A stretch of 64,000 nucleotides of DNA, taken from a marine bacterium B5-7. Its GTDB lineage: Bacteria; Pseudomonadota; Gammaproteobacteria; Arenicellales; CAJQKF01. Below the pieces are notes generated by a model, which saw nothing but the letters and a program-made list of their open reading frames with translations, was not told where the DNA came from and ran no database searches. The position numbers and the translations under genes were made by a program. The stretch covers positions 11,231 through 75,230 of the forward strand of contig BQJD01000017.1 of NCBI GenBank assembly GCA_021604525.1. Reading direction: 5' to 3'. This document shows, piece by piece, positions 4,753 through 50,107 of this stretch (its first letter is position 1; the number at the start of each line of letters is the position of its first letter).

Positions 4753-4775
4753 TTTCCAGGGTTGTTAGCCTACGC

Positions 4776-4808
4776 AAAGCCCGGCCATCGTGCCGGGCTT
4801 TGTCGTTC
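4776..4808 (+). terminator. Rho-independent terminator after the SYLF gene
   Basis: Perfect 10-bp stem AAAGCCCGGC (4776-4785) / GCCGGGCTTT (4792-4801) with a 6-nt loop, followed by a T-rich tail. Confidence 0.55.
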
Positions 4809-4963
4809 AATGTTGATGAACATCCACTATCCCGAATAGATGGGGTAATGAATTTGATGACGAATCCTTTTAAGGAAATCGTGCGCATGGGATGCGATCG
4901 TAGTCACGGACGTATAGAATCAACCCGGATTGCAAGTTACCCAAAAGCCTAAGGACACGATAC

Positions 4964-8527: not shown

Positions 8528-9280
8528 TTAAGGGACACAGGTTCGTCCGCCGTCGACGTTGATGATCTGTCCCGTGATATAGCTATCCGGTTGAACCAGG
8601 AATAAAACCGTGGAGGCGATGTCGGCCGTACTGCCAGTACGGTTGAGAGGTACCCGTGCGAGCAAGCGTTGCCGGGCTGCATCGTTGAGATTTGTCTCCG
8701 GCCACAAAATTGCACCGGGAGCAATGCCGTTGACGCGCACATCCGGAGCCAGTGCCTGTGCCAGGGCGCGCGTCATGTTAACAAGGCCAGCCTTGGTGAT
8801 GGTGTAGGGGATGTGATCGGCGAGGGGCCGGTCGGCGTAGATATCAGTGATGTTGACCACAGCACCTTTGCAACGCTTCAGCTCAATTGCAAGAGCTTGT
8901 GTCAGAAAATACGGTGCCTTGAGGTTTATGTCGAGAAGCCCATCCCACTGCGATTCCGTGGTGTCGCCGAGTGGCGTTGAATGGAATTTCGAGGCATTGT
9001 TTACAAGGACATCGAGCTGTCCCCACTGACCGATTGCCTGATTTGCCAGAGAGTCGATGGTGTTGATATCGCTGATGTCGGCTGCAATGCAGCACGCGCT
9101 GCCCGGGCGGGTTGTATTCAGTTCTGCAGCGAGATAATTGGCAGCGTCGGCCGAGGTACCGTAGTGAATGAGAACGCGATGACCCGCGTTATGCAGATGG
9201 CGAACGATCTCGGCGCCGATACGACGTGCTGACCCGGTTACCAGGGCAACACGATTGTGAATGGATTCGTCTGCTGTCAT
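8528..9280 (-). CDS. short-chain dehydrogenase, pteridine reductase / FolM-like
   Basis: Rossmann motif ALVTGSARRIG, NNAS, and catalytic YxxxK (YTITKAG). Start moved to ATG 9280 (MTADES...). The ORF-track start at 9370 adds 30 non-conserved residues. Confidence 0.75.
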   Translation of the reverse strand: MTADESIHNRVALVTGSARRIGAEIVRHLHNAGHRVLIHYGTSADAANYLAAELNTTRPGSACCIAADISDINTIDSLANQAIGQWGQLDVLVNNASKFHSTPLGDTTESQWDGLLDINLKAPYFLTQALAIELKRCKGAVVNITDIYADRPLADHIPYTITKAGLVNMTRALAQALAPDVRVNGIAPGAILWPETNLNDAARQRLLARVPLNRTGSTADIASTVLFLVQPDSYITGQIINVDGGRTCVP

Positions 9281-34500: not shown

Positions 34501-34893
34501 GTAGGCGAAATGTATGAGGGCGTCGTCGAATCGATGACATTCCATTAACCGGTTGGCAAAGTGTATCCGCGCGTCTTTATTGGAAAAATCGAGTGCCAGG
34601 CAGTGGGAAAAATCGTTCAGCGCATCCTCGATATTGAGTAACTGCCATTTCAAATGCCCGGATTGCATCCAGACATCCGGATCATCGGGAGTCAAAATCA
34701 TTGCGTAGCGGAGGTGGTCCTGGGCGGCGGGCAGGAAGCCGAGCTTCTCGTCGATGGTCGAGAGGATTATCCAGTTGTCGCTATTGGATGGATCAAGTTC
34801 GCATAGCTCCGACCAGAGTGGGCGGGCAAGATCGAGACGGCCACTTTCAATAGCGGCTATGGCCGATGCGTGTAACGTTGATTGAGAATCCAT
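31513..34893 (-). CDS. multidomain TPR - class I SAM methyltransferase - TPR - GT41 (OGT/SPINDLY-like) glycosyltransferase
   Basis: Methyltransferase motif I VVDIGCGTGRLA (coded near nt 34080). TPR-like helices on both sides of it. C-terminal GT41-type region IRIGYVSADFKMHSV, LSGHTGGGRLPLFARKPAPIQ, FACCNNINK and DPFPYNGTTTTCDALWMGVPV. ATG 34893 preferred over the TTG at 34926. Confidence 0.8.
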   Translation of the reverse strand: MDSQSTLHASAIAAIESGRLDLARPLWSELCELDPSNSDNWIILSTIDEKLGFLPAAQDHLRYAMILTPDDPDVWMQSGHLKWQLLNIEDALNDFSHCLALDFSNKDARIHFANRLMECHRFDDALIHFAYVAATQGQLTDEEIIRFACCSICAKDASGFKRLLSLWDAAEIDTFLERVVDALLQLFSPNELVIMDLSCSDSSVDNEISKSIQHHLNNRSATWDWHAFFDRRAQLANYIASAAENEAMAVIAKDIATRACVKENVLTHVVDIGCGTGRLARELAKHEAALTLTGIDHSTESIRVANAGCGYDTLLCEDIRADISRRVISTADVIVLSGVLGFDRPVRDILDDLIDIVQPGCVFYIAEKKNAGYIDEIKVYIDQLCGSNNRYQLTLGATDQNIWIVSSTPLDEPAPSDNDKNPVHESERLANQLIQAGQLLKTQNYSHCKDLTLEVAQAYPGSSEAMFNLGLHAQSLQQFDQALHFYRRSLAYHRGNALTWFQIGAVYQQCGRSEKLVVHAYVKCLKYMPGYPAALQNLIGLYSRQSNAESTWKVMHQLMMLNPLGIDHLLSAFKQQISIKPDDPISQHLIKFLDSEEWFRAQFEHALEKKFLQRAERLLESLRTTGANAEDLLFIEARLREKSGDMTAAIDSVQKAIRINPENSIYWTYLASISASRGKLDTAHRLWRYATSRIEAKNPNWSNRLFFSNYNQRLRPEQNFMLHQQWGNAVSASLIDVCRSHNLTRRNKSKIRIGYVSADFKMHSVAMFFYNVLKFRNSDRFEVYCYSATGGSDVMTTKLRLFSDYWREIKHIDDATVEKQIRHDGIDILVDLSGHTGGGRLPLFARKPAPIQCTYLGYANTTGLGEIDYRITDTEADPPGVSDSLHSEQLIRLPNGFLGYSRHAVAVPITLNNNTQNHRHYTFACCNNINKVNDDVIACWSGILRQLPESTLLIKAHNLNNREIVERYQNKFSKQGIEPQRIHLMNTIDNAEHLNLYNQIDIALDPFPYNGTTTTCDALWMGVPVLALAGDRHAARVGASILTRLGLNDWIARDTTDYIDKAIKFAQQPEHLIDLKLTMRQRMKNSSLMQPGRIAKELEDAYSTMWDRYVREIEYVAPLNTIATPS

Positions 34894-35225
34894 GCGAAGC
34901 TTTTTTCTGTTTAATTGTAATGGCAATTCGCTGATGAATCATCAAGACTAGTGTATGAATGATTATGTCACCTGCGAAAACATATACGGTTGTATTCCTC
35001 ATCCAGGATAAACAACCGACCATATATGGACTATAGAAACTAGTTTCCAGAATACACCAATCATGCAGTAAGCCTGAATTCCTGAAACGGTAACAATAAA
35101 CGTGAAGAAATTACATTCAGGGTTTACTCGTACCAAATCGCGAATGATATGGCGTTATGTGGTCAGGTACAATAAGTGCTATCAGAGAAATGTACGAACT
35201 ACACAGGTGGGCGAGATGTCGGCTT

Positions 35226-36353
35226 TTAGCTGATTGTGGAATTGACCCGAGGATTTGACTTTGGCGCATCGACCAGCGTACCTTCCATCAGTTTTTTGAA
35301 CGCGTAGTAGGACGGCATTTTGCGCAACGTGCCACCACGATGATCCACCAATCCATAACCGGGATTAATGAGCTGCCACCAGTAAACTCGTTCCACCAGT
35401 TGGCTGCGCCAGGCAATCTTGAAGTAGTGTGTCAGATAATCGGCCTGGGTTGCCTCATCCACCGTCGATCGGGGATGGCCTGAATTCGGTGTGTACGGTT
35501 TAGTGTCAAGCAACGGCCAGTTGGTTTCACTGATCCAAAGACGCCGTCCGCTGACGTTGGAGACCGCGAGCATTGCTGCGATGAGGCGAATCTTGCGTTC
35601 GAGATTGAACACACCGTACTGTCGGCCATCGGGTGAGCCGCGACGATTGATATAAAGCAACGAGGCGCAAATATCGAATTGCTGAGGGTGAAAATTAAAT
35701 AACGTTCGAAGCGTGACCAGCGGCTCGAAATCGATCACTGATGAGCCGGCTACTTCAATAGGATTCGAGGCATTTTTAATTTCGTTGATTGCCCGCATCG
35801 CCCGATCCATCAGGTCAAGCCATTGGCCGCTGTGCCGGCAGCCCCACTTGCTGCGATTGATGGCATTGCCTATCTGGTAGGTCCGAGCCCGAGGCGACAG
35901 GCCGGCGACGATTTGGCTCACCTGCCGCTGCCAGTTGTCCGGGTCACGAATGCTATCGCGGCTTTGCAAAATATTGATCGCAAAGTCGCGATCCGGCAGA
36001 CGATTCATCAGCTCAAGGTAGGGTTCAAGCTGATCTGCTTCCCAACAGGGTACTCGCACCATCAGGTTCCTGACATTGAGGTCGTCGACCATGTCGACGA
36101 TAGCGTCGTTAAAGCGAGTATCGGGTGTAACGCTCAGGCCGACAAAATCATGCGCATCGGCAGGCGCCGATAAGAATGGTTTCATGAACGAATAACGAAG
36201 TGCCACGAATGGACCTAAAGCCAAAACGCTGACCGCTATCTTCATGTACTCGATAATATTGCCAACGGAAGTTCGCGGCTTGTCGGACTCTTGCAGCTTG
36301 TAGGGCTGACTGGAGTACGGGTCCCACCAGTCGGGCAGGAGATCCGGATTCAC
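35226..36353 (-). CDS. hypothetical protein, TIM-barrel glycoside-hydrolase-like
   Basis: One N-terminal hydrophobic segment. Clan GH-A-like strands YQIGNAINRSKWG and RLWISETNWP, and a C-terminal YWWQLINPGYGLVD. Assignment rests on motif resemblance only. Confidence 0.45.
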   Translation of the reverse strand: MNPDLLPDWWDPYSSQPYKLQESDKPRTSVGNIIEYMKIAVSVLALGPFVALRYSFMKPFLSAPADAHDFVGLSVTPDTRFNDAIVDMVDDLNVRNLMVRVPCWEADQLEPYLELMNRLPDRDFAINILQSRDSIRDPDNWQRQVSQIVAGLSPRARTYQIGNAINRSKWGCRHSGQWLDLMDRAMRAINEIKNASNPIEVAGSSVIDFEPLVTLRTLFNFHPQQFDICASLLYINRRGSPDGRQYGVFNLERKIRLIAAMLAVSNVSGRRLWISETNWPLLDTKPYTPNSGHPRSTVDEATQADYLTHYFKIAWRSQLVERVYWWQLINPGYGLVDHRGGTLRKMPSYYAFKKLMEGTLVDAPKSNPRVNSTIS

Positions 36354-38752: not shown

Positions 38753-39409
38753 ATGACTCAAGAGCAACAACCATCAGCCACGAATCGACGCAAACTGATT
38801 AAGGCGCTTACGATTGGCGGCGTTGCTGCTGGTACGGCTAAACTTCCCGAGCAGTGGGCGAAGCCTGTGGTCGAATCTATTGTACTGCCAGCTCACGCCC
38901 AGACTACGCAACCAGAAGCACCCCCGGGTCCAGATCTCGGTGACGGATATTTTCTGGCACAAGGTAGCGGCATAGCTTTGCAGCAACCTGACGATTCGAT
39001 TTTGGACTATTTTGCTCGTCCGGCACATGCGCAAGACGACATTGACGCTGATCAATTCGTGGTAGGTTGTGTGTCGCTGAAAGACGGAAAGTTGTACATC
39101 GACTCACTTTATAACGACATCACTGGTGACGGCGTATTTTGTCTTCTGGACAACCTCATGGAAGTCAGCGGTGTACCACTCGGTGGCAGCCAGTCTCTCA
39201 ATATTGGTTCAGAGTTTGATCTTCCCGCCGAAACCGAAGACTGCGACAACGATTTCTATCCGGCTACCGTGCATTTCGATAGTATTTCCGGGCAGGCGCC
39301 CAATCGCATGGTGACAATACGTCTGGTTACCGCTGCGACCAACGATATCGTTGTCTGTCAGGAAACCGACAAGCCTACCTGTGAGAGCGCGGTTACTTTA
39401 CCGGAGTAA
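38753..39409 (+). CDS. exported hypothetical protein, member 1 of the RR...LPxQWxxPVV...LPAHAQTT presequence family
   Basis: GGGAGA ribosome-binding site 8 nt before ATG 38753. Twin-arginine TNRRKLIKALTIGGVAAG followed by LPEQWAKPVVESIVLPAHAQTT. Acidic mature part with 5 Cys and a second ARPAHAQDD motif. Confidence 0.6.
   Translation: MTQEQQPSATNRRKLIKALTIGGVAAGTAKLPEQWAKPVVESIVLPAHAQTTQPEAPPGPDLGDGYFLAQGSGIALQQPDDSILDYFARPAHAQDDIDADQFVVGCVSLKDGKLYIDSLYNDITGDGVFCLLDNLMEVSGVPLGGSQSLNIGSEFDLPAETEDCDNDFYPATVHFDSISGQAPNRMVTIRLVTAATNDIVVCQETDKPTCESAVTLPE
38786..38908 (+). other. conserved presequence block, copy in member 1
   Basis: Encodes RRKLIKALTIGGVAAGTAKLPEQWAKPVVESIVLPAHAQTT. The LP...AHAQTT part matches members 2 and 3 at 15 of 22 residues. 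Confidence 0.6.
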
Positions 39410-39426
39410 TGTTTCTTTTTTGGCAC

Positions 39427-40530
39427 TCATCCCGGGTTAATTGGCTGCATCATAAGGTCGAGACGTTCATAACCTGAAGATAGGCCGTTACCCGGGAGAT
39501 TGGTTTTTCCCTCGCCACAAACGAGGTCGATCGTGTCGCGAATCAGCACCTGCTTGATACTTTTTGAAGATAGTGCGGCGATCTCCGGCGTTCGGTTGCA
39601 TTCGATCAACCACGGATTGCCGTGTACGTCGATTTCAATATCGAGGCCGAGTAATTCGAAGCAATTGTTGCGATGCTGTAAATGTGACCCGATATCGTTT
39701 TCCATAGCAGAGGTTATTCTCCCGGCAACGTCTCCCACCATGGTTTTGATGCGTGCCCATAACAGACCGAAGTCGCTATGGTGATACTTGAAGGTTGCCG
39801 CCCAGCGACTTAACGAAACCGAACATTCCGTCGCCGGTTTGTCGGTCAGTGCCGTCTGTATGTGGGTATTGGTGTTGTAAGCCGCCGGGTCGGTCAGGTT
39901 GCGGAGCGCTTGTGGAAACGGCGCACTCGCCAGATCCACATAACCTTCGTTATAAATATAGGCTTCACCGGGTTTAATCGCCGTGATCAGCAGATACAGA
40001 CGCAAGTTGAACTTGCAGCCGTCGTGCAGCATCGGCGTGTGCAAATATTGCTGGACGATAGTTCTGGGCTTTGGTTTTACTTGTCCTGGATCTAAAACAA
40101 CTTCGATACCCTGACCGCATGCGCCTAAAACCGGTTTGATAATCCATGCCATATCCGGATGTTGCGCAGCATAGGACTTGAACGACTCCAGTTCATCCGC
40201 CAACCGCCAGGTCCGCGGATAGTATCGGGGCGCATTCGAATCGGCAGGCTGGTCCAGGGTTTTATCGAGTGCATGTTTACCGATGTAGTCGGATATCCCC
40301 GGAAAATGGCAAATTCGCTGATGCTCTTTGAGGTCGTATAAAACGGCCGGAGGCGGATCTTTCGCCACATACCACAATAAATCCCAATCCGGTTTATAGG
40401 TCCGCTGCCAGCCACGCCGCTCGAACTCCGCTTCGAGCAGGCTCAAGTCAGTTCGGCGAGAAGTGGGAACCAATCCGTATTTCTTCACAACCATTCCAAG
40501 CGCAAAATCCCTCTCCCTATCGTGGCCCAA
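39427..40530 (-). CDS. tubulin-tyrosine ligase (TTL) family ATP-grasp protein
   Basis: TTL-family blocks WIIKPVLGACGQGIEV, QQYLHTPMLHDGCKFNLRLYLLITAIKPGEAYIYNEGYVDLA, and CFELLGLDIEIDVHGNPWLIECNRTPE. TTG start at 40530; an alternative ATG is at 40494. Confidence 0.8.
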   Translation of the reverse strand: MGHDRERDFALGMVVKKYGLVPTSRRTDLSLLEAEFERRGWQRTYKPDWDLLWYVAKDPPPAVLYDLKEHQRICHFPGISDYIGKHALDKTLDQPADSNAPRYYPRTWRLADELESFKSYAAQHPDMAWIIKPVLGACGQGIEVVLDPGQVKPKPRTIVQQYLHTPMLHDGCKFNLRLYLLITAIKPGEAYIYNEGYVDLASAPFPQALRNLTDPAAYNTNTHIQTALTDKPATECSVSLSRWAATFKYHHSDFGLLWARIKTMVGDVAGRITSAMENDIGSHLQHRNNCFELLGLDIEIDVHGNPWLIECNRTPEIAALSSKSIKQVLIRDTIDLVCGEGKTNLPGNGLSSGYERLDLMMQPINPG

Positions 40531-40563
40531 GCCTGGCTTTGCCGATTTCCACAGGGAACATTT

Positions 40564-42003
40564 TTAAGCCGCTTGCTCACTGATCGCCTTTACCTCGAGA
40601 AATTCCTCGATACCCCAGGCGCCACCCTCACGACCGTTACCGGACTGCTTGTAACCACCAAACGGGCTGCCGGGGACACGCTGCGCACCGTTGATCTGCA
40701 CCATGCCGGCGCGTAATTGACGCGAGACGCGGCGCGCGCGATCAGCGTCACCCGTTTGCAGATAAGCAGCCAGACCGTAAGGTGTATCGTTAGCCATGGC
40801 AACAGCTTCGTCTTCGGAATCGAACGGAGTGATGGACAGTACCGGACCAAATATTTCTTCGCGGTATATGGTCATCTCGGGGGTCACATCAGCAAAAACC
40901 GTGGGCTTGACGAAGTAACCGCGGTTAAATCCATCAGCCCGGCCAGGGCCGCCGACAACCAGTCGCGCGCCTTCAGCGACGCCGGTTTCAAGTAACTTCT
41001 GCACCCGATCATACTGCAACTGCGAGACCAGCGGACCGATGTGTTTGCCCGGATTCGAGGCGAGATCAATCTTGGTGGAGGCAGCAACTTCAGCGGCAGC
41101 TTTTACCGCGGTATCGTAAGCAGAACGTTCCACCAGCATTCGTGTCGGAGCGTTGCAGGATTGGCCTGTGTTGTTAAAGCAAAAGGCCGCGCCATGGCGC
41201 GACGCGCGTTTTACATCGCAGTCGGCAAATATCAAATTGGGCGATTTCCCACCCAACTCCAGCGATACTCGCTTGACCTGATCCGCTGCTGCATGGCTGA
41301 CTGAAATCCCCGCGCGGGTGGAACCGGTGAACGAGACCACGTCGATCAGCGGATGCGATGACAAAGCCGAGCCGACTCCAGGGCCATCGCCATTGACCAG
41401 ATTGAAGACGCCTGCCGGTACGCCGGCTGCATCGATGATCTCGGCAAACAGCATGGATGACAGCGGCGCCACTTCGGCCGGTTTCAATATCATGGTACAA
41501 CCGGCAGCCAGCGCCGCGCCCACCTTCAGCGTGACCTGGTTCATCGGCCAGTTCCACGGGGTGATCAACGCGGCGACACCGATGGGTTCATGGATAATAA
41601 CCTGACCCGGCGCGTCGTCGCGCAACGGTTGTTCGAACTTGAAAGTCTTAAGAGTCCTGGCAAATGCCCGCAGGTGACTCAATCCGGAACCAGCCTGGGA
41701 GGTTCTTGCCATGTCTATGGGTGCGCCCATCTCCGTCGAAATGGCCTCAGCCATGTCGTCCATGCGCTTTTCATACTCCGAGGCGATATTCTCAATCACC
41801 TCGACACGCTCGCCGGAATCGGTCCAACCCCATGACGCGAAGGCACTTCTTGCTGCGTTAACAGCCCGATCGACGTCGGCTTCGGAACCGAGGGTGATGG
41901 TAGCCACCTGTTCCTCGCTGGATGGATCAATCACCGGGAAATCGTTGGCGGTTGTCGGCGCTACCCATGCGCCGTTGATGTAGAAATTGGTCAATGTTTG
42001 CAT
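40564..42003 (-). CDS. NAD(P)-dependent aldehyde dehydrogenase
   Basis: ELGGKSP, catalytic Cys context FNNTGQSCNAPTR, and PFGGYKQSGNGRE. Ends 33 nt upstream of the TTL-family gene on the same strand. Confidence 0.9.
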   Translation of the reverse strand: MQTLTNFYINGAWVAPTTANDFPVIDPSSEEQVATITLGSEADVDRAVNAARSAFASWGWTDSGERVEVIENIASEYEKRMDDMAEAISTEMGAPIDMARTSQAGSGLSHLRAFARTLKTFKFEQPLRDDAPGQVIIHEPIGVAALITPWNWPMNQVTLKVGAALAAGCTMILKPAEVAPLSSMLFAEIIDAAGVPAGVFNLVNGDGPGVGSALSSHPLIDVVSFTGSTRAGISVSHAAADQVKRVSLELGGKSPNLIFADCDVKRASRHGAAFCFNNTGQSCNAPTRMLVERSAYDTAVKAAAEVAASTKIDLASNPGKHIGPLVSQLQYDRVQKLLETGVAEGARLVVGGPGRADGFNRGYFVKPTVFADVTPEMTIYREEIFGPVLSITPFDSEDEAVAMANDTPYGLAAYLQTGDADRARRVSRQLRAGMVQINGAQRVPGSPFGGYKQSGNGREGGAWGIEEFLEVKAISEQAA

Positions 42004-42218
42004 GATATCAACAAGTTCCCATGGTTTAATGGTTAATGGCTTCGATGAAAAAGCGATTCGAACAATACAAGTTTATATATTCCTTGAACATTGGGTTGAC
42101 CTTCAGGCTATACAAGGGTGAATCTGGACAATTCAATTGATAATCGATGTCCTGTAGCAATAATTGGTGCGCACGACCACCATCTTGATTCGCTACAATC
42201 GGCCATCACCTAATCTAC

Positions 42219-42668
42219 ATGCAATCCACGATGACACCCAATCAACACGAACAGGCCGATCTTATTGTCGAGACATTCGAAATGCTCGGCGAATGGGACG
42301 AGAAGTATCGATTCATCATCGATCTCGGCCGCCAGATGCCGCCCATGGACCCGGCGGATAAAACCGACGCTACCAAGGTGAACGGTTGCCTTTCAAGTGT
42401 CTGGGTGGTTGCCGATAGCCGCGAGGTTGATGGCCACACTGCCATCGACTTTACAGCCGACAGCGATTCGGCCATCGTCAAGGGACTGGTTGCCATCCTG
42501 CGTATGGTGTACTCCGGCCAGACGCCGCAAGCTATTGTTTCCTTCGATATAGACGAATTGTTTTCAAAAATTGATCTCGGCCAGCATCTGTCCATGGGGC
42601 GTCGAAATGGGTTGTCGGAGATGGTGCGAAAGATCAAGTCGCTGGCAGCAGAGAAGGCGGCTGCCTGA
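42219..42668 (+). CDS. sufE: SufE-family cysteine desulfuration (sulfur acceptor) protein
   Basis: KYRFIIDLG and the active-site context VNGCLSSVWV, typical of SufE/CsdE. Confidence 0.8.
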   Translation: MQSTMTPNQHEQADLIVETFEMLGEWDEKYRFIIDLGRQMPPMDPADKTDATKVNGCLSSVWVVADSREVDGHTAIDFTADSDSAIVKGLVAILRMVYSGQTPQAIVSFDIDELFSKIDLGQHLSMGRRNGLSEMVRKIKSLAAEKAAA

Positions 42669-42705
42669 ACTCGTTTATGTTGTCGACTACTGTTGAGTGA
42701 TATGC

Positions 42706-43167
42706 ATGTCGACCTTACTGATCATATCTCATGCACCCTCGCCTAATACACGGCGGCTGAATAAGGCGGTGGCGATTGGTGCTCGCCATGAATCTATTGA
42801 GGGCGTCATAGTCGATCTTCGTTCACCTTTCGAAACCAACGCCGAACACGTTCTTGATGCCGATGCCATCATTCTCGGTACCACAGAAAATTTCGGTTAC
42901 ATGAATGGGGCGCTCAAGGATTTCTTCGAACGAATCTACTATCCGTGTCTGGAAAAAACCGAAGGCCTACCTTATGCGCTGTTCGTTAAAGGTGGGTTAG
43001 ATGGTACTGGTGCGCGAATCAGCGTTGAAAAAATTGTCGGCGGATTGAGGTGGAAGGCGGTACAGGAACCGCTGGTGATGACAGGTGACTTTCAGGAGAC
43101 TTGGCTGGAGCCGTTGTCGGATCTCGGCATGGCCATGGCAGCGGGCCTTGAAGCCGGAATATTTTAA
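42706..43167 (+). CDS. flavodoxin-like fold NAD(P)H-dependent oxidoreductase
   Basis: LLIISHAPSPNTRRL and AIILGTTENFGYMNGALKDFFER resemble FMN-dependent flavodoxin-like reductases. ATG 42706 preferred over GTG 42697. Confidence 0.6.
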   Translation: MSTLLIISHAPSPNTRRLNKAVAIGARHESIEGVIVDLRSPFETNAEHVLDADAIILGTTENFGYMNGALKDFFERIYYPCLEKTEGLPYALFVKGGLDGTGARISVEKIVGGLRWKAVQEPLVMTGDFQETWLEPLSDLGMAMAAGLEAGIF

Positions 43168-43178
43168 AAAGTCCAGAT

Positions 43179-43214
43179 CCGCCCTACGAGAACAGTGAGG
43201 CTCTGGTAGGGCGG
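43179..43214. terminator. GC-rich hairpin between convergent genes (possible bidirectional terminator)
   Basis: Stem CCGCCCTAC (43179-43187) / GTAGGGCGG (43206-43214) with an 18-nt loop. On the minus strand a T-run follows within about 10 nt. Confidence 0.4.
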
Positions 43215-43288
43215 GCATAACCGAAAGGTTCCAGCCATCGACTCAGAAGCCATCAGACAAATGAATGGTTTGAGTCGTATCAACGATC

Positions 43289-43867
43289 CTAGCTAAAATC
43301 GGTGATACAGGAATCGGTGAATGACGTTTCCGATATGACAGTTATAGTTGTACTTCCACCAGATATGGTTCCTACACCGGGGAAAGTTGACAGCGCACCC
43401 AGTGTCGACTCAGTCCCTGGATAGGTTGTAAAGAAAATAAGATTTACAATGTAAGAAGTGAAGCTGGTGCTGATTGTTGAAATAATGCTACCGCTAGGTG
43501 CCGTAAGACATTGAGTGAAAGTTGTTGCTGAGAGACCGATATAATTGTAATCGGTGCCGTCTGAAGATAAATCGAGTGCGTGAAGCTGTTCGATACCGGA
43601 TGTACATGATATCTCGCAAGGCGGTTCAGAGGTGCTGGACGTTGTAGTAGTACTAGTTGTTGTTTGGGCGTGAGCCGGCAACAACACATGGTCGACGACC
43701 GGGCGCGACCACTGTTTTGGCAGTTGGGTGGCACCGCTGACACCGACGGCGGAAATGGCTGCGACCAAGGCTCGCCGACGCTCTTTGTTGGTATCCGAAT
43801 CGTTTTGATCCGCAGCTAACGGAGTGGTATTTGAGCCCGATACGCTCGGTCTAATTTTATCAGTCAT
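43289..43867 (-). CDS. exported Ser/Thr/Cys-rich hypothetical protein, member 2 of the presequence family
   Basis: GGGAG ribosome-binding site upstream. RRRALVAAISAVGVSGATQLPKQWSRPVVDHVLLPAHAQTTT, then a poly-Thr/Ser linker and a 4-Cys domain (EPPCEISCTSG...TQCLTAPSG...DSC). Confidence 0.65.
   Translation of the reverse strand: MTDKIRPSVSGSNTTPLAADQNDSDTNKERRRALVAAISAVGVSGATQLPKQWSRPVVDHVLLPAHAQTTTSTTTTSSTSEPPCEISCTSGIEQLHALDLSSDGTDYNYIGLSATTFTQCLTAPSGSIISTISTSFTSYIVNLIFFTTYPGTESTLGALSTFPGVGTISGGSTTITVISETSFTDSCITDFS
43655..43780 (-). other. conserved presequence block, copy in member 2
   Basis: Codons 30-71. The protein sequence is identical to codons 30-71 of member 3. Confidence 0.7.
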
Positions 43868-44293
43868 TGTTCTGCTCCCTCGCCTTCCTTATTATGGCTT
43901 AACAATAAATTATTGTATTTTATGGTTATTTGTCAGGTTCGTTATTCTTTTCCGTAATGCTTGAATTCACGGGTAAATAATTACAGCCGGGTATGCTAAG
44001 AACCCCCTGCATGTGCTCGTAAACACCCTCCATATTACCGAGACTACGACGATAATAGTCAAACTGCACACATTATTCAATTTATATTAAATTTCGGTTG
44101 ATAAATGAAAACATCCCGAATTTATTGAACGACGGGAAGAATGTTTAAAACAAATGCTGTGAGGGGGGTGATGACGGGTGTCTTCAGACATCTTGACTCG
44201 ATCTGTCGAAACTCGTGAGGAGCCCGAATAACAATAAATCGGTTTTGAAGAAGTGGTATTGCTGTATTAACGAAGCAATAAGTGGGTAAGGCT

Positions 44294-44334
44294 TATCCGC
44301 CCCACGCTTTTGTGGCGACCGTAAGGGGCGGATA
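44294..44334 (-). terminator. GC-rich hairpin downstream of member 3
   Basis: Stem TATCCGCCCC (44294-44303) / GGGGCGGATA (44325-44334) with a 21-nt loop. No clear T-run, so the terminator call is tentative. Confidence 0.3.
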
Positions 44335-44377
44335 TGAGGTACTAAATGCCAGATAACGGATTCACGATCCGTGAGGT

Positions 44378-44932
44378 TCAGTTACAGGGGGTATTAAATG
44401 AGGTTGATGCAGAGAGAAAGATCTCGGTTGCAACATTCACTTCGGTACCTAGAGGGTAAGTTGTCAGAGCGCCATAACTCGAGAAAGATCCCGTTTCGGT
44501 TGCCAGTAAGTTGAAATAGCCTGCAAATGCGGTGTCGAAGACACTAATTGTTGTAGATGTCACGTCACCACCAGGTTCCGAAATACAATTCGTGTAAGTC
44601 GTAACGGCGAAACGGGCCAGAAAATGAGTGCTGAGGAAATCATCGTAATAAACCTCAAGATCCTCAATGATGCCGGAGGTGCACGATATCAGGCAGGCCG
44701 GCTCCGAGGTGCTGACCGGCGTGGTTGTCTGAGCGTGTGCCGGCAACAACACATGGTCGACGACCGGACGCGACCACTGTTTCGGCAGTTGGGTGGCACC
44801 ACTGACGCCAACGGCAGAAATGGCAGCTACCAATGCGCGTCGGCGTTGTTTGTTTAGATCTGCCTCACCATGATCTGCAGAATGCTCAGTGGCATTCGAA
44901 TCCGATACATTCGGCCTGGTTTTTTCTTCCAT
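44378..44932 (-). CDS. exported Ser/Thr/Cys-rich hypothetical protein, member 3 of the presequence family
   Basis: Same 42-aa block as member 2. Mature part is homologous but diverged (EPACLISCTSG...TNCISEPGG...YGALTTYP...TPCN). Confidence 0.65.
   Translation of the reverse strand: MEEKTRPNVSDSNATEHSADHGEADLNKQRRRALVAAISAVGVSGATQLPKQWSRPVVDHVLLPAHAQTTTPVSTSEPACLISCTSGIIEDLEVYYDDFLSTHFLARFAVTTYTNCISEPGGDVTSTTISVFDTAFAGYFNLLATETGSFSSYGALTTYPLGTEVNVATEIFLSASTSFNTPCN
44720..44845 (-). other. conserved presequence block, copy in member 3
   Basis: Codons 30-71. Hand alignment against 43655-43780 gives 17 differences, all at third codon positions and all synonymous. Confidence 0.7.
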
Positions 44933-45379: not shown

Positions 45380-46045
45380 ATGACGCACAACCTGTTCACG
45401 CCAAAATTCGAAAACCTCCCCGATGTGATACCGGTCTTCCCACTACCAGGCGCCATCCTGATGCCGGGAACACAGTTGCCGCTGAATATCTTCGAACCAC
45501 GCTACTTACGCATGCTGAATGATGTACTCTCAAACGACCGCATAATCGGGATCGTGCAGCCCGATAGTCGATCTCGCGACGATGAGGTGGTGTGTAATAC
45601 AGGCTGTGCAGGACGGATCACATCATTCAACGAAACTGATGACGGCCGTTTCATCGTGTTGTTGTCGGGGTTGTGCCGATTTGATCTGGTCGCGGAGACA
45701 ACCGATGGCACCGACTATCGAACTTTCCGTGTCGACTGGTCACGCTTTCAATCCGACTACGATCTGGAGCAATCCCTCGATGGATTGTCAACCTCGCGGG
45801 ATGCCTTGCTGAAGTGGGTCAGGGAATTTGGCTCGACTCGCAACGCAGAAGTGGATTTCGACAGTCTCGGCAAGCTCAATGATCTGCAGGTGGTTAATGT
45901 GCTGATCTGTGGTTTGGGATTCGAGCCGCCTTCCGTACAGGGGCTGATTGAATCGGTGTCACTGACCGATCGCGCCGATTTGCTCTCCGGGCTTTTAAGG
46001 ATAGCCTCAATGAATTCCAGCGATCCCGGCCATCACACCCATTAG
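45380..46045 (+). CDS. LON peptidase N-terminal (substrate-binding) domain protein
   Basis: IPVFPLPGAILMPGTQLPLNIFEPRYLRMLNDVL is the Lon-N/PUA-like signature. ATG 45380 preferred over TTG 45356. Confidence 0.8.
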   Translation: MTHNLFTPKFENLPDVIPVFPLPGAILMPGTQLPLNIFEPRYLRMLNDVLSNDRIIGIVQPDSRSRDDEVVCNTGCAGRITSFNETDDGRFIVLLSGLCRFDLVAETTDGTDYRTFRVDWSRFQSDYDLEQSLDGLSTSRDALLKWVREFGSTRNAEVDFDSLGKLNDLQVVNVLICGLGFEPPSVQGLIESVSLTDRADLLSGLLRIASMNSSDPGHHTH

Positions 46046-48174
46046 CGGAATTTTCCCCGATCCGGTTTGAAACCAGCGACTGCGCGTCGCAGCCCGATCA
46101 AACCCATCTCATTGGGTGATCTGCTGTATCGCAGGCAGATATAGGTCTTGCCGATAGTTTCGATGGTCTCGGCATGGTCGGGTAACGCTTCGGCAGCACG
46201 CTTACTTAAGGATAGCGGACCTTCACTTGGCATTACGCGTATGCCCGCGCGTGCCAGCTTCGATTTGAATCTTCGATAGTGCTTAAGCGGTGTTTCAGCT
46301 TGCCGGCTCGTTGCAGAGAGCAGCAGGTAGGTTGCGATCATGAATACTGCGAACGCGGCAGTCAGTGTCATTACCAGCCAGGGCCAGTCGGGAGTCGCCA
46401 CACCCAGGCGCTTCATTAACTGCTGCTGGCGTTGTGGCCCATAGGCCATGACCCAGTTATTCCACTGGTAAACGAATGCATCGGACAGGTGGCGTATGCG
46501 TCTCAGATTATCGCCAAGCCAGCCGCTACGTAGCATATTGCGAATACCACTCGTGCCAAAGCCCGAATTAAAACCGGCCAGCGAATCGCCTCTTCGCAGT
46601 GCATCGACACCGATCTCGACACGTTCCGGTGCTACCGCGGCGGTTGGATCGATGCGCCTCCAGCCACGCCCGTCAACCCAGATCTCGGCCCACGCATGCG
46701 CATTGGATTGACGCACGATTGTGTAGTCGCCGGTAGGGTTGTATTCACCACCCTGATAGCCAACGACCAATCGCGCGGGTATGCCGGCGGCCCGCATCAG
46801 TGTCGCGAAGGCGCTGGCATAGTGCTCGCAGTAGCCGTTCCTGGTATTGAACAGGAACTGGTAAACCGGTTCGCCGTCGAGTAGCGGTGGTTGAAGCGAA
46901 TAACGAAACGGGCTTTGAGTGAACAATTCAAGCGCGCGAGCCGCGATCATTTCAGCGTTGGGGTTGTCGGCGGGATCGCCGGCAAGATCCTGTGCAAGCG
47001 CTATGATTTTCTTGTTGATGCCGGGATAAAGATCGGTGAGATGGTCATCCGGCGGTCCGGTGGCCATATAGCGTGCCGTGACCGAGGCGGCCTTGAAACG
47101 GATGCGTTCACGAATCGGTTGGCGGGTTTCGCCGAGTGCGAGATTCGATAAAGGATTGCCGATGGATACCGAAACCGGTGTTTCAAGAAGAGGTAGCCAG
47201 GTTTTATCGGTCGCCTCCAACGTCATGTCATAGGCCACAAGCTTCGGGTTGGTATCAGCCGGGAAAACTTCGTGGCGACGTTCGGCCCGGCTCCAGGTGC
47301 GACCATCGAACCTATCCAGCACCAATGTCCGCCAATAAAGCTGGTCATGGTGTGGTCGATCCTGATTGAACTCGACACGAAAGGCGACCGCATCGTTCAG
47401 ACTCAACTCACTGATCGAGCCCGGCGCGACTTGCTCGCTAAGGCCGCTTATGGCGCGGGGCTTATCATCAGCCATGCCCCATAAACTGCCTTCTATACGC
47501 GGGAATAATACATAGGCGACGATGGCCAGCGGAATACCGTGCAAAATGATACGCGAGGTTAATAACATCGCCCCTTTGATTGTGAAGCTTCCCGGCGCCA
47601 CCAGCAGGACAAAATTGCTGATGACCAGGGCAAGACAGAAGAATCCAATGGCGGCCGTTGAGGGTGATTGGTCGAACAGGAATGCTGCCAGCACCACAAT
47701 GGCGGTGAGTATGTTCAAGAACATGGCATCGCGAAGCGAATCGGTTTCGATCACCTTGAGCGCAGTAAAGGCAATTAACATGGCACTGCCGGCGGTGCGC
47801 CCGAATATAGTTCGATACTCCGTTAATAGCAGGACGAGCATGGCGAGCGTCAGAATCCAGCGCAAAAGCTTTCCTGGTACCAGCAATCCTCGCGCAAGGG
47901 TAATCAGGCGTACGGCAACAAGGGTCATGACGACTACACCAAGCCATAGCGGTTGGTACATGACATGCAGACCGAGTGCCAGTGGTACGGTCATAACCGT
48001 TGTGGCCAGTGCAGCACGTGTTGGCGCTTCAAGCGGTGCGGATGGCGGTTGCGGAAATTGCCACCTGCGAGGCTTTACGGGACGAAATTCCGACTCAACA
48101 CGATCATGTGTTTTATGTCCACCTGGCGTGCTCACGGGTTGTCGTCTTGTGTAATATTCGCCGGATCGGGACAA
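46042..48174 (-). CDS. transglutaminase-like membrane protein (TgpA / DUF3488 family)
   Basis: N-terminal polytopic region and transglutaminase core GYCEHYASAFATLMRAAGIPARLVVGY...NAHAWAEIWVDGRGWRRIDPT. The true start may lie downstream, because the ORF overlaps the DUF58 gene by 43 nt. Confidence 0.85.
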   Translation of the reverse strand: MSRSGEYYTRRQPVSTPGGHKTHDRVESEFRPVKPRRWQFPQPPSAPLEAPTRAALATTVMTVPLALGLHVMYQPLWLGVVVMTLVAVRLITLARGLLVPGKLLRWILTLAMLVLLLTEYRTIFGRTAGSAMLIAFTALKVIETDSLRDAMFLNILTAIVVLAAFLFDQSPSTAAIGFFCLALVISNFVLLVAPGSFTIKGAMLLTSRIILHGIPLAIVAYVLFPRIEGSLWGMADDKPRAISGLSEQVAPGSISELSLNDAVAFRVEFNQDRPHHDQLYWRTLVLDRFDGRTWSRAERRHEVFPADTNPKLVAYDMTLEATDKTWLPLLETPVSVSIGNPLSNLALGETRQPIRERIRFKAASVTARYMATGPPDDHLTDLYPGINKKIIALAQDLAGDPADNPNAEMIAARALELFTQSPFRYSLQPPLLDGEPVYQFLFNTRNGYCEHYASAFATLMRAAGIPARLVVGYQGGEYNPTGDYTIVRQSNAHAWAEIWVDGRGWRRIDPTAAVAPERVEIGVDALRRGDSLAGFNSGFGTSGIRNMLRSGWLGDNLRRIRHLSDAFVYQWNNWVMAYGPQRQQQLMKRLGVATPDWPWLVMTLTAAFAVFMIATYLLLSATSRQAETPLKHYRRFKSKLARAGIRVMPSEGPLSLSKRAAEALPDHAETIETIGKTYICLRYSRSPNEMGLIGLRRAVAGFKPDRGKFR

Positions 48175-49100
48175 AGTGCCAATGCCTTAAGACAGCGCGC
48201 CCGGTGTCGCCCGCCCTGGTCGGCAGCAATTGATAAGCCTGGCAGTCTCAGCGCATAACTTGTGCCGGCGCTGTCGGCATCGAGTATCCATCGGCACAAT
48301 TCGGACAGTCGTGACTCGTGGTCGGTGTTGCGGGTGTCGGCGTAGTCAAGGCATATCCCGGCACTGCCTGTGCCCTCGAACTGTTTGCTTACGAGACCGC
48401 TGCCGCGTGCGCTGTTGCGCCAGTGAATTCGGCTCGGCGGGTCCTCTTTGCGGTGACCCCTCAGGCCACGAAAATCGCCATCATCTGCATGGCTACCGTT
48501 ACCGGCCCCGTGTGCCTGGCTGTCAAATGAGATGGGTGAAGACCACACAGCAGCAGGTCGTGGATAAACAAGTTGGCTGACTTCATTGTCTGGCCCCTGA
48601 ACCAAACGCTTGCTCCAGGCACACAACAAGCCCACAGGAAAGATACTGACAAAATATATCTCGGGGAGCGGCTGCCAACCACGCGATCCGGTTTTAAAAT
48701 TCAGCTCAATACGGGTGTGACCATCTGCTGGAAGATCAAAACGCGATTGCGAATCGCCGCCGCGAAGCCACAGCGCGTATCGCGACCTGTGGCGGGTTTC
48801 ATGGACGCGAACGGAACCTTGGGCCATATCACCTGAGAATACCGGTTTGCCGGGATGTATCGATACCGATAATCCAACCAGGTTGCGCTGGGTGTAGTGC
48901 ATGGCGACGATGCCGATAGCCACCAGCATGAAGGTGAACAAGTGACCGAGACCATTGTTGTAGTTGACCGACACCAGCAGCATCATCAGGATCGCACCAG
49001 CATAAAGCATGCCGAAACGGGTCGGCAGGATATACACCTTGCGGGAGTCGGTACCAAGCGCAGGATTGCCGATATCGTCGAGGCTGTCTGCAGTTGTCAT
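48132..49100 (-). CDS. DUF58 domain-containing protein
   Basis: DUF58 signature DFRGLRGHRKEDPPSRIHWRNSARGSGLVSKQFE and two N-terminal TM helices. Sits between the MoxR and TgpA genes. Confidence 0.75.
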   Translation of the reverse strand: MTTADSLDDIGNPALGTDSRKVYILPTRFGMLYAGAILMMLLVSVNYNNGLGHLFTFMLVAIGIVAMHYTQRNLVGLSVSIHPGKPVFSGDMAQGSVRVHETRHRSRYALWLRGGDSQSRFDLPADGHTRIELNFKTGSRGWQPLPEIYFVSIFPVGLLCAWSKRLVQGPDNEVSQLVYPRPAAVWSSPISFDSQAHGAGNGSHADDGDFRGLRGHRKEDPPSRIHWRNSARGSGLVSKQFEGTGSAGICLDYADTRNTDHESRLSELCRWILDADSAGTSYALRLPGLSIAADQGGRHRARCLKALALCPDPANITQDDNP

Positions 49101-49150
49101 TTACCCAGGTCTCATGGCTGGGCGGTCGATTGACATGGCTTCAGACGGCC

Positions 49151-50107
49151 TCAATCAACGGCTACGGATTCGATCAATCGCCGGGTCAGTGCATCACGCT
49201 CAGCAGATGCCAGACCCTGAGCCAGGCGGTGTCCGATAATGGCCGGTGCGACGGCCTGAACATCCTCGGGTAACACCGCATCGCGATTATCCAGCAGTGT
49301 AAAAGCGCGCGCCGCACGCAGCAATGCAAGACCGGCGCGGGGTGACAGGCCGTTATCGATCCATGTCAGATTACGACTGGCTTCAACCAGATCGAGGACG
49401 TAACCAGTCAAAGCGTCGCTGGCGAATACGCCCTCAGCCTGACGTTGCAGTTCGATCACCTCATTGGCATCCAGAACGGCTTCAAGTTCGCGTAGCAGCG
49501 TGGTGCGATCGTCGCCCTTCAACAAGGCCTGTTCGAAGACACGCGATGGAAAGCCGATGGATAGTGTCATCATGAAACGATCGAGCTGACTTTCCGGAAG
49601 CGGGAATGTACCCGATTGCTCGTGGGGATTTTGCGTGGCGATAACAAAGAACGGCGTCGGCAGATCGTAGCTGTGACCATCGACCGAGACCTGATGCTCT
49701 TCCATCGCCTCAAGCAGGGCGCTCTGGGCACGCGGGCTGGCGCGGTTGATCTCGTCGGCCAGCACCACTTCCTTGAACAGCGGCCCTTGATGAAACTTGA
49801 ACCCTGCCCGTTCGGAATCATAGACCGATACGCCGATGACATCCGCCGGGAGCATATCGCTGGTGAACTGGATACGGTTGAAGGCAAGGCCCAGCACTCT
49901 CGCCAAGGAGTGTGCCAGGGTCGTCTTGCCGACTCCGGGATGGTCTTCAATCAACAGATGACCGCGGGCGAGGATGCAGGTCAGGCACAATCTCACCACT
50001 TCCTGCTTGCCGAGGATAAGTTCATTTATCAGAGATTCGGCGTCCGCAAGACGACTCAATGCAGATCGCTGTCGATCCGCAAGCACGTTGACCATGTCAC
50101 TCTCCAT
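49151..50107 (-). CDS. MoxR-family AAA+ ATPase
   Basis: Walker A EDHPGVGKT, Walker B VVLADEINRA and ATQNPHEQSGTFPLPESQLDRF. Confidence 0.9.
   Translation of the reverse strand: MESDMVNVLADRQRSALSRLADAESLINELILGKQEVVRLCLTCILARGHLLIEDHPGVGKTTLAHSLARVLGLAFNRIQFTSDMLPADVIGVSVYDSERAGFKFHQGPLFKEVVLADEINRASPRAQSALLEAMEEHQVSVDGHSYDLPTPFFVIATQNPHEQSGTFPLPESQLDRFMMTLSIGFPSRVFEQALLKGDDRTTLLRELEAVLDANEVIELQRQAEGVFASDALTGYVLDLVEASRNLTWIDNGLSPRAGLALLRAARAFTLLDNRDAVLPEDVQAVAPAIIGHRLAQGLASAERDALTRRLIESVAVD

Follow-up and report, generated by a model that had tools for sequence, protein, structure and literature searches.

Three genes in a 64,000-nucleotide (nt) stretch of DNA from marine bacterium B5-7, a gammaproteobacterium of the Arenicellales (contig BQJD01000017.1, positions 11,231 to 75,230; the whole stretch is called the window below), encode predicted exported proteins, here termed M1, M2 and M3. 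A presequence of about 50 residues is the only part that aligns among all three. It joins a twin-arginine translocation (Tat) signal to a separate box of 19 residues that ends in Ala-His-Ala (AHA). The same module precedes highly diverse cargo in many bacterial lineages, and its conservation stops sharply a few residues beyond AHA. Its genes are linked to those for small PqqD-family proteins, for NTP_transf_5 nucleotidyltransferases and for HprK-type kinases with intact catalytic motifs. From sequence and gene context, we give a probability of about 0.55 to the reading that the presequence is a composite leader, in which Tat targeting is combined with a docking box for the modification of a Ser or Thr residue in the cytoplasm, before export.

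Precursors in the window

The features of the three precursors are as follows, with positions in the numbering of the 64-kb window.

38753-39409 (+): M1, an open reading frame (ORF) for a 218-amino-acid (aa) precursor with the composite leader (residues 1-49) and an acidic cargo with 5 Cys
38783-38842 (+): Tat part of M1, residues 11-30, with the twin-arginine motif NRRKLIK and a Gly/Ala-rich hydrophobic region (h-region); TIGR01409 match
38843-38899 (+): conserved box of M1, LPEQWAKPVVESIVLPAHA, residues 31-49, with an AxA-type end; from regular expression, alignments and position frequencies
38900-38908 (+): positions +1 to +3 of M1 (Q-T-T), the final conserved positions of the module; from position frequencies
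38999-39031 (+): second leader-tail copy in M1, ILDYFARPAHA, residues 83-93; from regular expression and a scan with a position-specific scoring matrix (PSSM)
43289-43867 (-): M2, a 192-aa precursor with a long polar n-region, the leader to residue 67, a Ser/Thr-rich linker and a 4-Cys beta-rich cargo
43724-43780 (-): Tat part of M2, RRRALVAAISAVGVSGATQ, residues 30-48; weak match to a Tat-signal Pfam family
43667-43723 (-): conserved box of M2, LPKQWSRPVVDHVLLPAHA, residues 49-67; from regular expression and alignment
43658-43666 (-): positions +1 to +3 of M2 (Q-T-T); from alignment and position frequencies
44378-44932 (-): M3, a 184-aa precursor and tandem paralogue of M2
44789-44845 (-): Tat part of M3, residues 30-48; from alignment
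44732-44788 (-): conserved box of M3, LPKQWSRPVVDHVLLPAHA, residues 49-67; from regular expression and alignment
44723-44731 (-): positions +1 to +3 of M3 (Q-T-T); from alignment and position frequencies

An earlier, sequence-only reading of this DNA had proposed these three ORFs as carriers of a new type of presequence, and all three are present at these coordinates and strands. M1 is identical to NCBI DHS20C01_21700 and M3 to DHS20C01_21750 (metagenome-assembled genome, MAG, 'marine bacterium B5-7'), and independent gene callers yield the same products (P0009 for M1, P0001 for M2, P0002 for M3). Its description of the presequence is accurate. An n-region of 11 residues in M1 and 29 residues in M2 and M3 leads into RR (residues 12-13 in M1; inside RRR at residues 30-32 in M2 and M3), within Tat motif variants that read NRRKLIK in M1 and ERRRALV and QRRRALV in M2 and M3, respectively. 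A Gly/Ala-rich h-region and LPxQWxxPVVxxxxLPAHA-QTT follow. The 22-aa block, LPEQWAKPVVESIVLPAHAQTT in M1 and LPKQWSRPVVDHVLLPAHAQTT in M2 and M3, is identical at 15 of 22 positions, and RR and AHA are spaced 38 residues apart in all three. The Cys counts of the cargo (5 in M1, 4 each in M2 and M3) are also correct.

A six-frame search of the window with a regular expression for the LP..W..P...PAHAQ block finds exactly 3 occurrences. The BLASTP alignment between M1 and M2 is confined to M1 residues 1-50 (E = 2e-12) and leaves the cargo unaligned. M2 and M3 are 52% identical overall, and their leaders are identical from RRR to QTTT. AlphaFold2 models (mean pLDDT 38.7 for M1 and 50.7 for M2; the M2 model is beta-rich, with low confidence) are too poor for fold comparison.

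At the DNA level, the box and adjacent codons of M2 and M3 (43667-43736 and 44732-44801) differ at 3 of 70 nt. In the stretch before it, which encodes RR and the h-region, about 10 of 46 nt differ, with synonymous changes among them; identity in the cargo is about 50%. This pattern suggests gene conversion or nucleotide-level selection on the box.

Anatomy of the module

Position frequencies were taken from 285 non-redundant members, numbered so that the last Ala of AHA is -1. RR is present in 283 (the other 2 look truncated), and RR-x followed by two hydrophobic residues in 268; the RR-to-AHA distance is 36-40 residues in 276. The model TIGR01409 (TAT_signal_seq, cut-off 16.7 bits) matches M1 at 18.9 bits and leaves M2 and M3 unmatched. 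Relatives score 12.5-23.1 bits, and four of them exceed the cut-off: those in loci L047, L074 and L075, and a fourth member from the B5-7 genome, in contig L124.

Within the box, the near-invariant positions are L(-19), P(-18), W(-15), [KR](-13), P(-12), aliphatic residues at -11 and -10, D/E(-9), L(-5), P(-4), A(-3), H(-2) and A(-1); of these, P(-4), H(-2) and A(-1) are invariant. Beyond AHA come Q/A/T(+1), T(+2) and S/T(+3), with Ser or Thr at +3 in 97-100% of members, and conservation collapses from +4. H(-2) and S/T(+3) are found in 161/161 members of a profile-derived set, in which these columns were not imposed by a regular expression and which is biased toward the consensus. To our knowledge, signal peptidase I has no requirement for His at -2.

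A second site resembling the tail of the leader was found with a PSSM of positions -11 to -1 in 34 of 261 cargos, M1 included, compared with 1% of shuffled sequences. Its pattern is hydrophobic-hydrophobic-D-x-hydrophobic-hydrophobic-x-P-A-H-A, and it ends a median of 43.5 residues past the first AHA; the -2 residue is more variable than in the leader and no T-S follows (in M1 the next residues are QDD). To judge by its sequence, this copy may be the site of a soluble protease, a pro-region boundary (enclosing a pro-region of about 40 aa in M1) or a second docking site.

Distribution and cargo

Two initial homologue searches yielded about 20 proteins from other genomes, with the presequence in common and dissimilar C-terminal parts. 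The profile search that the sequence-only reading had proposed was then carried out: a leader profile of 45 columns, built from 17 presequences, was searched exhaustively against 1.84 billion representatives at 50% identity. It matches 4,502 clusters at E≤1e-3, a set whose weaker tail may include ordinary Tat signals, and 1,615 clusters at E≤1e-10, from at least seven phyla or classes. The module is thus widespread, its cargo is diverse, and the genes that co-occur with it could be tabulated (see below). The suggestion of a new specialised signal or leader class is thereby supported, and a chance origin of the shared block is excluded because the same module recurs in more than 1,000 protein clusters elsewhere.

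The best 150 profile matches, each in a separate 50%-identity cluster, are mostly 140-230 aa long and have near-invariant MSDKSRRKLLKSIAAGSGAIVAGKSLPESWSRPVVDSVMLPAHA-QTS, past which their sequences are unrelated. Searched with a degenerate DNA pattern of the box, GTDB species genomes yield at least 117 stretches, each with RR and an h-region upstream. The hosts include Desulfobulbales, among them the cable bacteria Electrothrix and Electronema and the cultured Desulforhopalus singaporensis and Desulfobulbus alkaliphilus; Chloroflexota (Anaerolineae, Caldilineae); Gammaproteobacteria (Arenicellales, Thiocystis, Thiohalocapsa marina, and the sponge-associated Candidatus Spongiihabitans and Poriferihabitaceae); Alpha- and Betaproteobacteria; Acidobacteriota (Vicinamibacteria); Verrucomicrobia; and Lentisphaerae. 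Several genomes have three to five or more copies, scattered or in tandem.

Cargo was compared in 261 members. Past +3, these form 106 BLAST clusters, 81 of which are singletons, so that the cargo is largely unrelated, in line with the earlier statement. The part after AHA comprises 61-342 residues (median 138) and is thus the size of a protein, not of a peptide (core usually under ~60). Cys counts are mostly even (2 in 69 members, 4 in 76 and 6 in 45, versus 1 in 9, 3 in 10 and 5 in 12), as expected of disulfide-bonded extracytoplasmic proteins. Many cargos open with a Ser/Thr/Pro-rich linker, as M2 does.

One cargo type is specific to Desulfobulbales (L008, L023, L049, L093, L100, L118). It follows the leader variant LPxKWTTP(L/I)(V/M)EFGxLPAHA(T/I)TSG, contains a conserved CxSCGIWFDSAxLV motif, and adjoins NTP_transf_5 in L023 and L118, and also kinase and PqqD in L023. 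It may be of interest for the envelope biology of cable bacteria.

The block does not belong to any family found in the databases and literature searched, a possibility that had been raised against its novelty. Thirteen members from different phyla match Tat-signal models alone in Pfam-A (2025) and NCBIfam 20.0, with the box uncovered, and neither LPAHAQ nor PAHAQTS turns up in the literature that could be searched. A literature search found no description of the leader family and no paper that joins a recognition element (RRE) for RiPPs (peptides that ribosomes make and that are modified after translation) with a twin-arginine signal; the nearest is a speculative remark in an engineering study (PMC5686179). 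Of the two analogies offered earlier, that with YSIRK, KxYKxGKxW and other specialised signals finds no matching model at E≤1 in the same 13 members (NCBIfam, Pfam). The analogy with RiPP leaders is the more accurate one, given the genomic coupling of the family to a peptide chaperone of the PqqD family and to a kinase of HprK type.

Genes linked to the leader

This coupling was observed in 116 GTDB loci, taken as arbitrary blocks of at most 8 kb in which all ORFs were clustered; a cluster of unrelated response regulators was left out. Two neighbour families recur across phyla. The first merges PqqD proteins of about 90 aa (PF05402, 60.8-61.6 bits; 41.8-61.6 bits for neighbouring PqqD proteins overall) with HprK-related kinases of about 280 aa, whose best NCBIfam match, TIGR04352, scores 81-92 bits (cut-off 200). 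The second is NTP_transf_5 (PF14907, 144-154 bits). The loci divide as follows.

At least one of PqqD, kinase and NTP_transf_5: 41/116 loci
Kinase carrying the full P-loop motif: 24/116 loci
PqqD-sized protein: 22/116 loci
NTP_transf_5: 27/116 loci
Two or more kinds of partner: 23/116 loci
All three kinds of partner: 12/116 loci

These counts are lower bounds, because the blocks are arbitrary and one enzyme set can serve several scattered precursors. PqqD, kinase and NTP_transf_5 genes lie on the same strand, with 4-nt overlaps in L023, L061, L075, L090, L102 and L108, and the gap between precursor and PqqD gene is 10-11 nt in L102 and L108. The linkage was also tested in reverse: around five kinase homologues on long contigs, a leader gene was found within 8-10 kb in three (L124, L127, L128). 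All 25 locus kinases that match the P-loop motif have the complete arrangement H-x14-[GAS]-x2-G-x-G-K-[ST] and D-E 17 residues past the Lys. Searches of PDB sequences with the PqqD, kinase and NTP_transf_5 proteins returned nothing meaningful.

The sequence-only reading had seen no obvious dedicated peptidase or transporter. This holds more widely: no lasso cyclase, B2 peptidase, C39 exporter or periplasmic protease is present in the annotated loci (L001, L124, L126-L129; Pfam) or among the recurrent neighbours. The partners are instead cytoplasmic modification enzymes, and in the B5-7 genome they lie not beside M1-M3 but on another contig. This contig, L124, from the same MAG and sequencing run, encodes a kinase, DHS20C01_12360 (P0200), with a complete catalytic motif (TIGR04352, 115.8 bits, below the cut-off), a PqqD protein (positions 8185-8454 of L124; PF05402, 41.8 bits) and a sulfotransferase. 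It also carries the fourth leader-bearing gene (SRRKLLKALTAGGAVAAVAPSEWTKPALKSVMLPAHAQST...; TAT_signal_seq, 23.1 bits), which the PqqD gene adjoins. M1-M3 therefore belong to a family of at least four genes, with candidate enzymes encoded elsewhere in the genome.

Further genes near PqqD, kinase and sulfotransferase in L124 (4816-18795) encode two 850-aa proteins with AMP-binding and PP-binding domains, an Asp/Glu racemase, a second sulfotransferase and a weak Pkinase-like protein. Between PqqD and kinase lies a 162-aa ORF (8529-9017, minus strand) that contains 'PPDVWTKP', without RR, h-region or AHA; it has no homologues in any fetched locus.

In nine loci from several phyla (L011, L044, L060, L063, L067, L070, L072, L094, L110), the protein in the kinase cluster is a fusion or partner of 550-1,100 aa with GT2 (and GT25) domains, which is consistent with a glycosylation branch of the pathway. 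In L001/L103 (Arenicellales MAG OZ244198.1, 7357-18967), four tandem M1-like paralogues all have the leader and the second AHA-type site. They are flanked by NTP_transf_5 and a LuxR-type regulator, and by a pair of GMC oxidoreductase and gluconate-2-dehydrogenase subunit; a kinase-GT2 fusion, PqqD, a sulfotransferase and a fifth precursor lie farther out.

Proposed mode of action

In the mechanism that we propose, the leader would consist of three parts. The first would be a genuine Tat signal, (S/T/N)RRx-hydrophobic-hydrophobic-K with a weakly hydrophobic Gly/Ala h-region; the second, the 19-residue box LPxxWx(K/R)P-hydrophobic-hydrophobic-(D/E)xxxLPAHA, would act like a RiPP leader; and the third would be x-T-(S/T) at +1 to +3. 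A small PqqD-family recognition protein would bind the box in the cytoplasm and recruit the HprK-type Ser/Thr kinase and, depending on the genome, also NTP_transf_5, GT2 glycosyltransferases or a sulfotransferase. The likeliest target would be the invariant Ser/Thr(+3) or Thr(+2), and the product phospho- or phosphoglycosyl-Ser/Thr. Export, which we infer to depend on Tat, would follow modification, and the leader would be removed at or near AHA|Q. Since Tat accepts finished proteins, it is a logical export route for a protein that is modified first. While bound, PqqD could in addition hold export back, in the way that TorD and DmsD act on cofactor enzymes. If this mechanism applies, the leader would be a portable 'modify first, then export' tag on unrelated, hypervariable and mostly disulfide-type cargo.

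A more far-reaching version of this proposal is put forward tentatively, at clearly less than even odds. It envisages a phylum-spanning, unnamed pathway in which secretory proteins are made as RiPP-style precursors. PqqD would dock, recruit kinase and nucleotidyltransferase for phospho(glycosyl)-Ser/Thr(+3) and time Tat export, and the tag would be carried by more than 1,000 unrelated cargo families, some of them clade-specific, in cable bacteria and in sponge symbionts.

Comparison with known systems

An HPr-kinase homologue, PqqD and a nucleotidyltransferase, accompanied by GT2 and sulfotransferase, are together known to tailor phosphorylated lasso peptides (PMC8498205, PMC7533575). Lasso kinases phosphorylate the Ser hydroxyl of the linear precursor, and in pseudomycoidin the nucleotidyltransferase adds one or two hexoses onto the phosphate (PMC8498205). 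Rumen lasso clusters encode HPr kinase, PqqD, an 'uncharacterized nucleotidyltransferase' and GT2 (PMC7533575). In the bsf cluster of Bradymonas, BsfK phosphorylates strictly the third core residue, where the core starts G-T-S and S3T is accepted; BsfK needs a leader with YxxPxL at -17 to -12, is strongly stimulated by the PqqD-type BsfB1, and has the motif residues H148/G163/G166/G168/K169/S170/D186 (PMC10368454).

Apparently the same three families that tailor lasso peptides (BsfB1/BsfK/BsfN, PadeK, PsmK/PsmN) adjoin the leader genes, with GT2 and sulfotransferase as extras. The kinases have the spacing of BsfK (His to Lys 21 residues, Lys to Asp 17 residues), a likeness of motif spacing. 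In the leader, W(-15)xxP(-12)x-aliphatic(-10) and x-T-(S/T) at +1 to +3 resemble the YxxPxL and the G-T-S core of the lasso precursors. The -2 residue, in contrast, is Thr (or Ile/Val) in lasso leaders and invariant His here, and lasso clusters have a cyclase C and a B2 protease, which the annotated loci lack. By these comparisons the system would work like leader-guided lasso tailoring, yet it is not a lasso cluster.

An HprK-like kinase is likewise paired with a PqqD-like protein in HPr-rel-A (TIGR04352 kinase and TIGR04353 PqqD) and in SynChlorMet (ScmC/ScmD). In NCBIfam, the neighbouring kinases and PqqD proteins match these systems best. The HPr-rel-A models score the kinases at 81-116 bits against a cut-off of 200 and the PqqD proteins at 22.8-25.4 against 35; Pfam annotates PF27840 ScmC on many of the kinase homologues. 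The radical SAM/SPASM partner of those systems is missing here. Judged by these scores, the kinase/PqqD set is a putative sister system of HPr-rel-A and SynChlorMet, not a member of either.

With Tat signals (SRRxFLK; TIGR01409, PF10518) the leader has in common RR-x with two hydrophobic residues, often a K, a weakly hydrophobic Gly/Ala h-region, basic residues after the h-region and an AxA-type site. It differs in its RR-to-AxA distance of 36-40 residues (roughly 21-27 in textbook Tat signals of E. coli), in the extra 19-residue box with invariant L, P, W, P, P and H, and in conservation up to +3; unlike an ordinary Tat signal, one module stands on unrelated cargo across phyla.

Some Tat signal peptides do have cytoplasmic binders: the redox enzyme maturation proteins (REMPs) TorD, DmsD and NapD bind them, which lets maturation be completed ahead of export (PMC3316669, PMC3712460). 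REMPs show no sequence relationship to the present system, each serves a single redox enzyme with a cofactor, and the segment they bind is RR and the h-region, whereas the proposed binder here would be PqqD-like, would act on a separate box and would direct a covalent side-chain modification.

Prochlorosins (Nif11-type leaders) and NHLP leaders likewise place a near-identical leader before unrelated C-terminal parts, with enzymes encoded once elsewhere. The present family resembles them in its scattered or tandem precursors and, in the B5-7 genome, in the separate location of the enzyme genes. Nif11/NHLP-type leaders are cut at a GG site by C39-peptidase ABC exporters and yield short peptides, whereas export here would be through Tat and the products would be small proteins. 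YSIRK, KxYKxGKxW and SipW-cognate signals also add a presequence motif to unrelated cargo; they are Gram-positive Sec signals with the motif in the n-region, unlike the box found here after the h-region of a Tat signal.

Weighing of alternative explanations

Several observations weigh against the composite-leader reading. The window has no tblastn match to PqqD, kinase or NTP5, and there is none in the ~10 kb and ~5 kb past its ends; in this genome, the surroundings of the kinase revealed no NTP_transf_5. Among the 116 loci, 75 have no partner in the block fetched, and two of the five kinase loci (L126, L129) have no nearby precursor. Both the kinases and the PqqD proteins fall below the curated cut-offs of every named subfamily. 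The likeness of W-x-x-P to the lasso YxxPxL is one of motif only, in a register 2 residues shorter, and the substrates are Tat-signal proteins of ~60-340 aa, as opposed to lasso precursors of ~40 aa. The lasso N proteins presumably belong to PF14907, judging by the matching Pfam name in PMC7533575. Disulfide-type cargo is more typical of Sec than of Tat substrates. Finally, AHA is separated from the h-region by about 20 residues, an uncommonly long distance for signal peptidase I, and 238 of the 285 members have a small-x-small site at most 6 residues before the box; signal peptidase may thus cut earlier, the box staying on the mature protein.

One alternative is a lineage of unusually long Tat signals whose c-region is kept for export or signal-peptidase processing, for avoidance of Sec or as a spacer, with PqqD, kinase and NTP5 serving another substrate. 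In its favour are a canonical Tat motif and h-region, the form of PAHA (an AxA-type site that has Pro at -4), the lack of partner genes in the window and their lack within 8 kb at most loci. Export alone, however, would need no invariant W, two Pro, His(-2) and Ser/Thr(+3) on unrelated cargo across seven phyla. Moreover, three rare families are linked to the leader in 35% of loci, in translationally coupled operons that start or end with the precursor, where chance would give roughly 0.2% (for a single-copy gene and an 8-kb block). PqqD-family proteins are peptide-binding chaperones, and those operons encode no other candidate peptide. We regard this explanation as improbable. An explanation that we consider just as doubtful starts from the early small-x-small site: cleavage there, at the end of the h-region, would leave the box, LPxxWxxPVVDxxxLPAHAQTS, as a mature N-terminus that, once exported, acts as a tag for sorting, anchoring or strand donation, for instance in envelope attachment or periplasmic maturation at AHA. 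The long distance from h-region to AHA fits this, as does the second AHA-type site about 44 residues downstream (in the 34 cargos noted above, M1 among them), which is not membrane-proximal and suggests a soluble protease that recognises ...LPxAHA. Against it, the neighbourhoods show no conserved periplasmic protease, sortase-like enzyme, usher or transporter, the recurrent neighbours being solely cytoplasmic enzymes, and the occurrence of the module in Chloroflexota besides classical diderms weighs against a role specific to the outer membrane. It is also only partly a rival, being compatible with cytoplasmic recognition of the box before export.

Least likely, in our estimate, is that these are polymorphic secreted effectors or bacteriocin-like toxins, with the leader as a recombination or secretion handle and kinase and PqqD as accessory or immunity-related proteins. 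A near-invariant leader on hypervariable cargo (the best 150 matches fall into 150 separate clusters) would suit such a role, as would tandem arrays (M2/M3, four copies in L001, three in L014), the nearly identical box DNA of M2 and M3 between diverged flanks, and enrichment in sponge-associated and sediment lineages. The scans, however, revealed no toxin or immunity domains, C39 peptidase or ABC exporter, and the conservation of the box and its linkage to chaperone and kinase would be left unexplained. The chief reason for placing all three alternatives below the composite leader is that none accounts for the coupling, at operon level, to a kinase and a peptide chaperone.

Other genes of the window

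The precursor genes bracket a block of about 4 kb, whose contents had been correctly listed as a TTL-family ATP-grasp, an ALDH, SufE and an FMN-reductase/flavodoxin-like protein, with an MFS gene adjacent. The block had been offered as possible context for the family; most of it looks incidental, and the ATP-grasp gene alone recurs beside an M1 orthologue.

39427-40530 (-): TTL-family ATP-grasp, convergent with M1 (PF03133, 157 bits)

The same convergent pair occurs in L088, a gammaproteobacterial MAG (4635-5735, plus strand, with 5724-6599, minus strand), at identities of 39% for M1 and 47% for TTL and with no other common synteny. M1 ends in ...TLPE. On this weak evidence from two genomes, the ATP-grasp is a possible M1-specific partner, for example a C-terminal ligase that would act on M1-type proteins. 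ALDH, SufE and FMN-reductase, between M1 and M2, were rejected as partners because they do not recur at other loci.

A TgpA transglutaminase (46042-48174) was considered as a lasso-B2-like peptidase and rejected: it has the ordinary TgpA_N, Transglut_core and DUF4129 domains and no relative near other members. It belongs to a set at 46042-50107 (minus strand) in which the TgpA-type transglutaminase is followed by two ORFs of about 320 aa, one of which (322 aa, 48132-49100, minus strand) has no Pfam match; the set appears to be an ordinary MoxR/DUF58/TgpA-style one, unrelated to the leader family. Some 4 kb upstream of M1, 31513-34926 (minus strand) encodes a 1,137-aa protein in which TPR repeats stand together with a SAM methyltransferase domain and a GT41 domain (O-GlcNAc-transferase-like). 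In view of the Ser/Thr-rich linkers in M2 and M3, it is possibly a protein Ser/Thr glycosyltransferase; no recurrence was seen elsewhere. A 375-aa ORF (35226-36353, minus strand) has no Pfam or NCBIfam match.

Implications

Tat signals and RRE-guided tailoring are each of a known kind, and their combination is undescribed in the literature searched. If the composite-leader reading is true, the Tat field would gain a different kind of signal binder and a new maturation step, known binders serving only cofactor enzymes. The leader-guided enzymes of RiPPs, regarded as tools of peptide tailoring, would act on whole proteins. Bacterial protein modification would gain a new kind, in which phospho- or phosphoglycosyl-Ser/Thr is placed at the N-terminus ahead of export. 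The leader is a possible ready-made tag for proteins that are modified site-specifically and exported; a phage-display engineering study speculated on such a tag design, and its preliminary attempts were unsuccessful (PMC5686179). Since there are carriers in culture, such as Desulforhopalus singaporensis DSM 12130, Thiohalocapsa marina DSM 19078 and Desulfobulbus alkaliphilus DSM 24258, the hypothesis is directly testable. If correct, it would give a function to the lasso-less PqqD/HprK/NTP_transf_5 set of many genomes, and would annotate more than 1,000 'hypothetical' secreted families in cable bacteria, marine Arenicellales-like Gammaproteobacteria, sponge symbionts and Anaerolineae.

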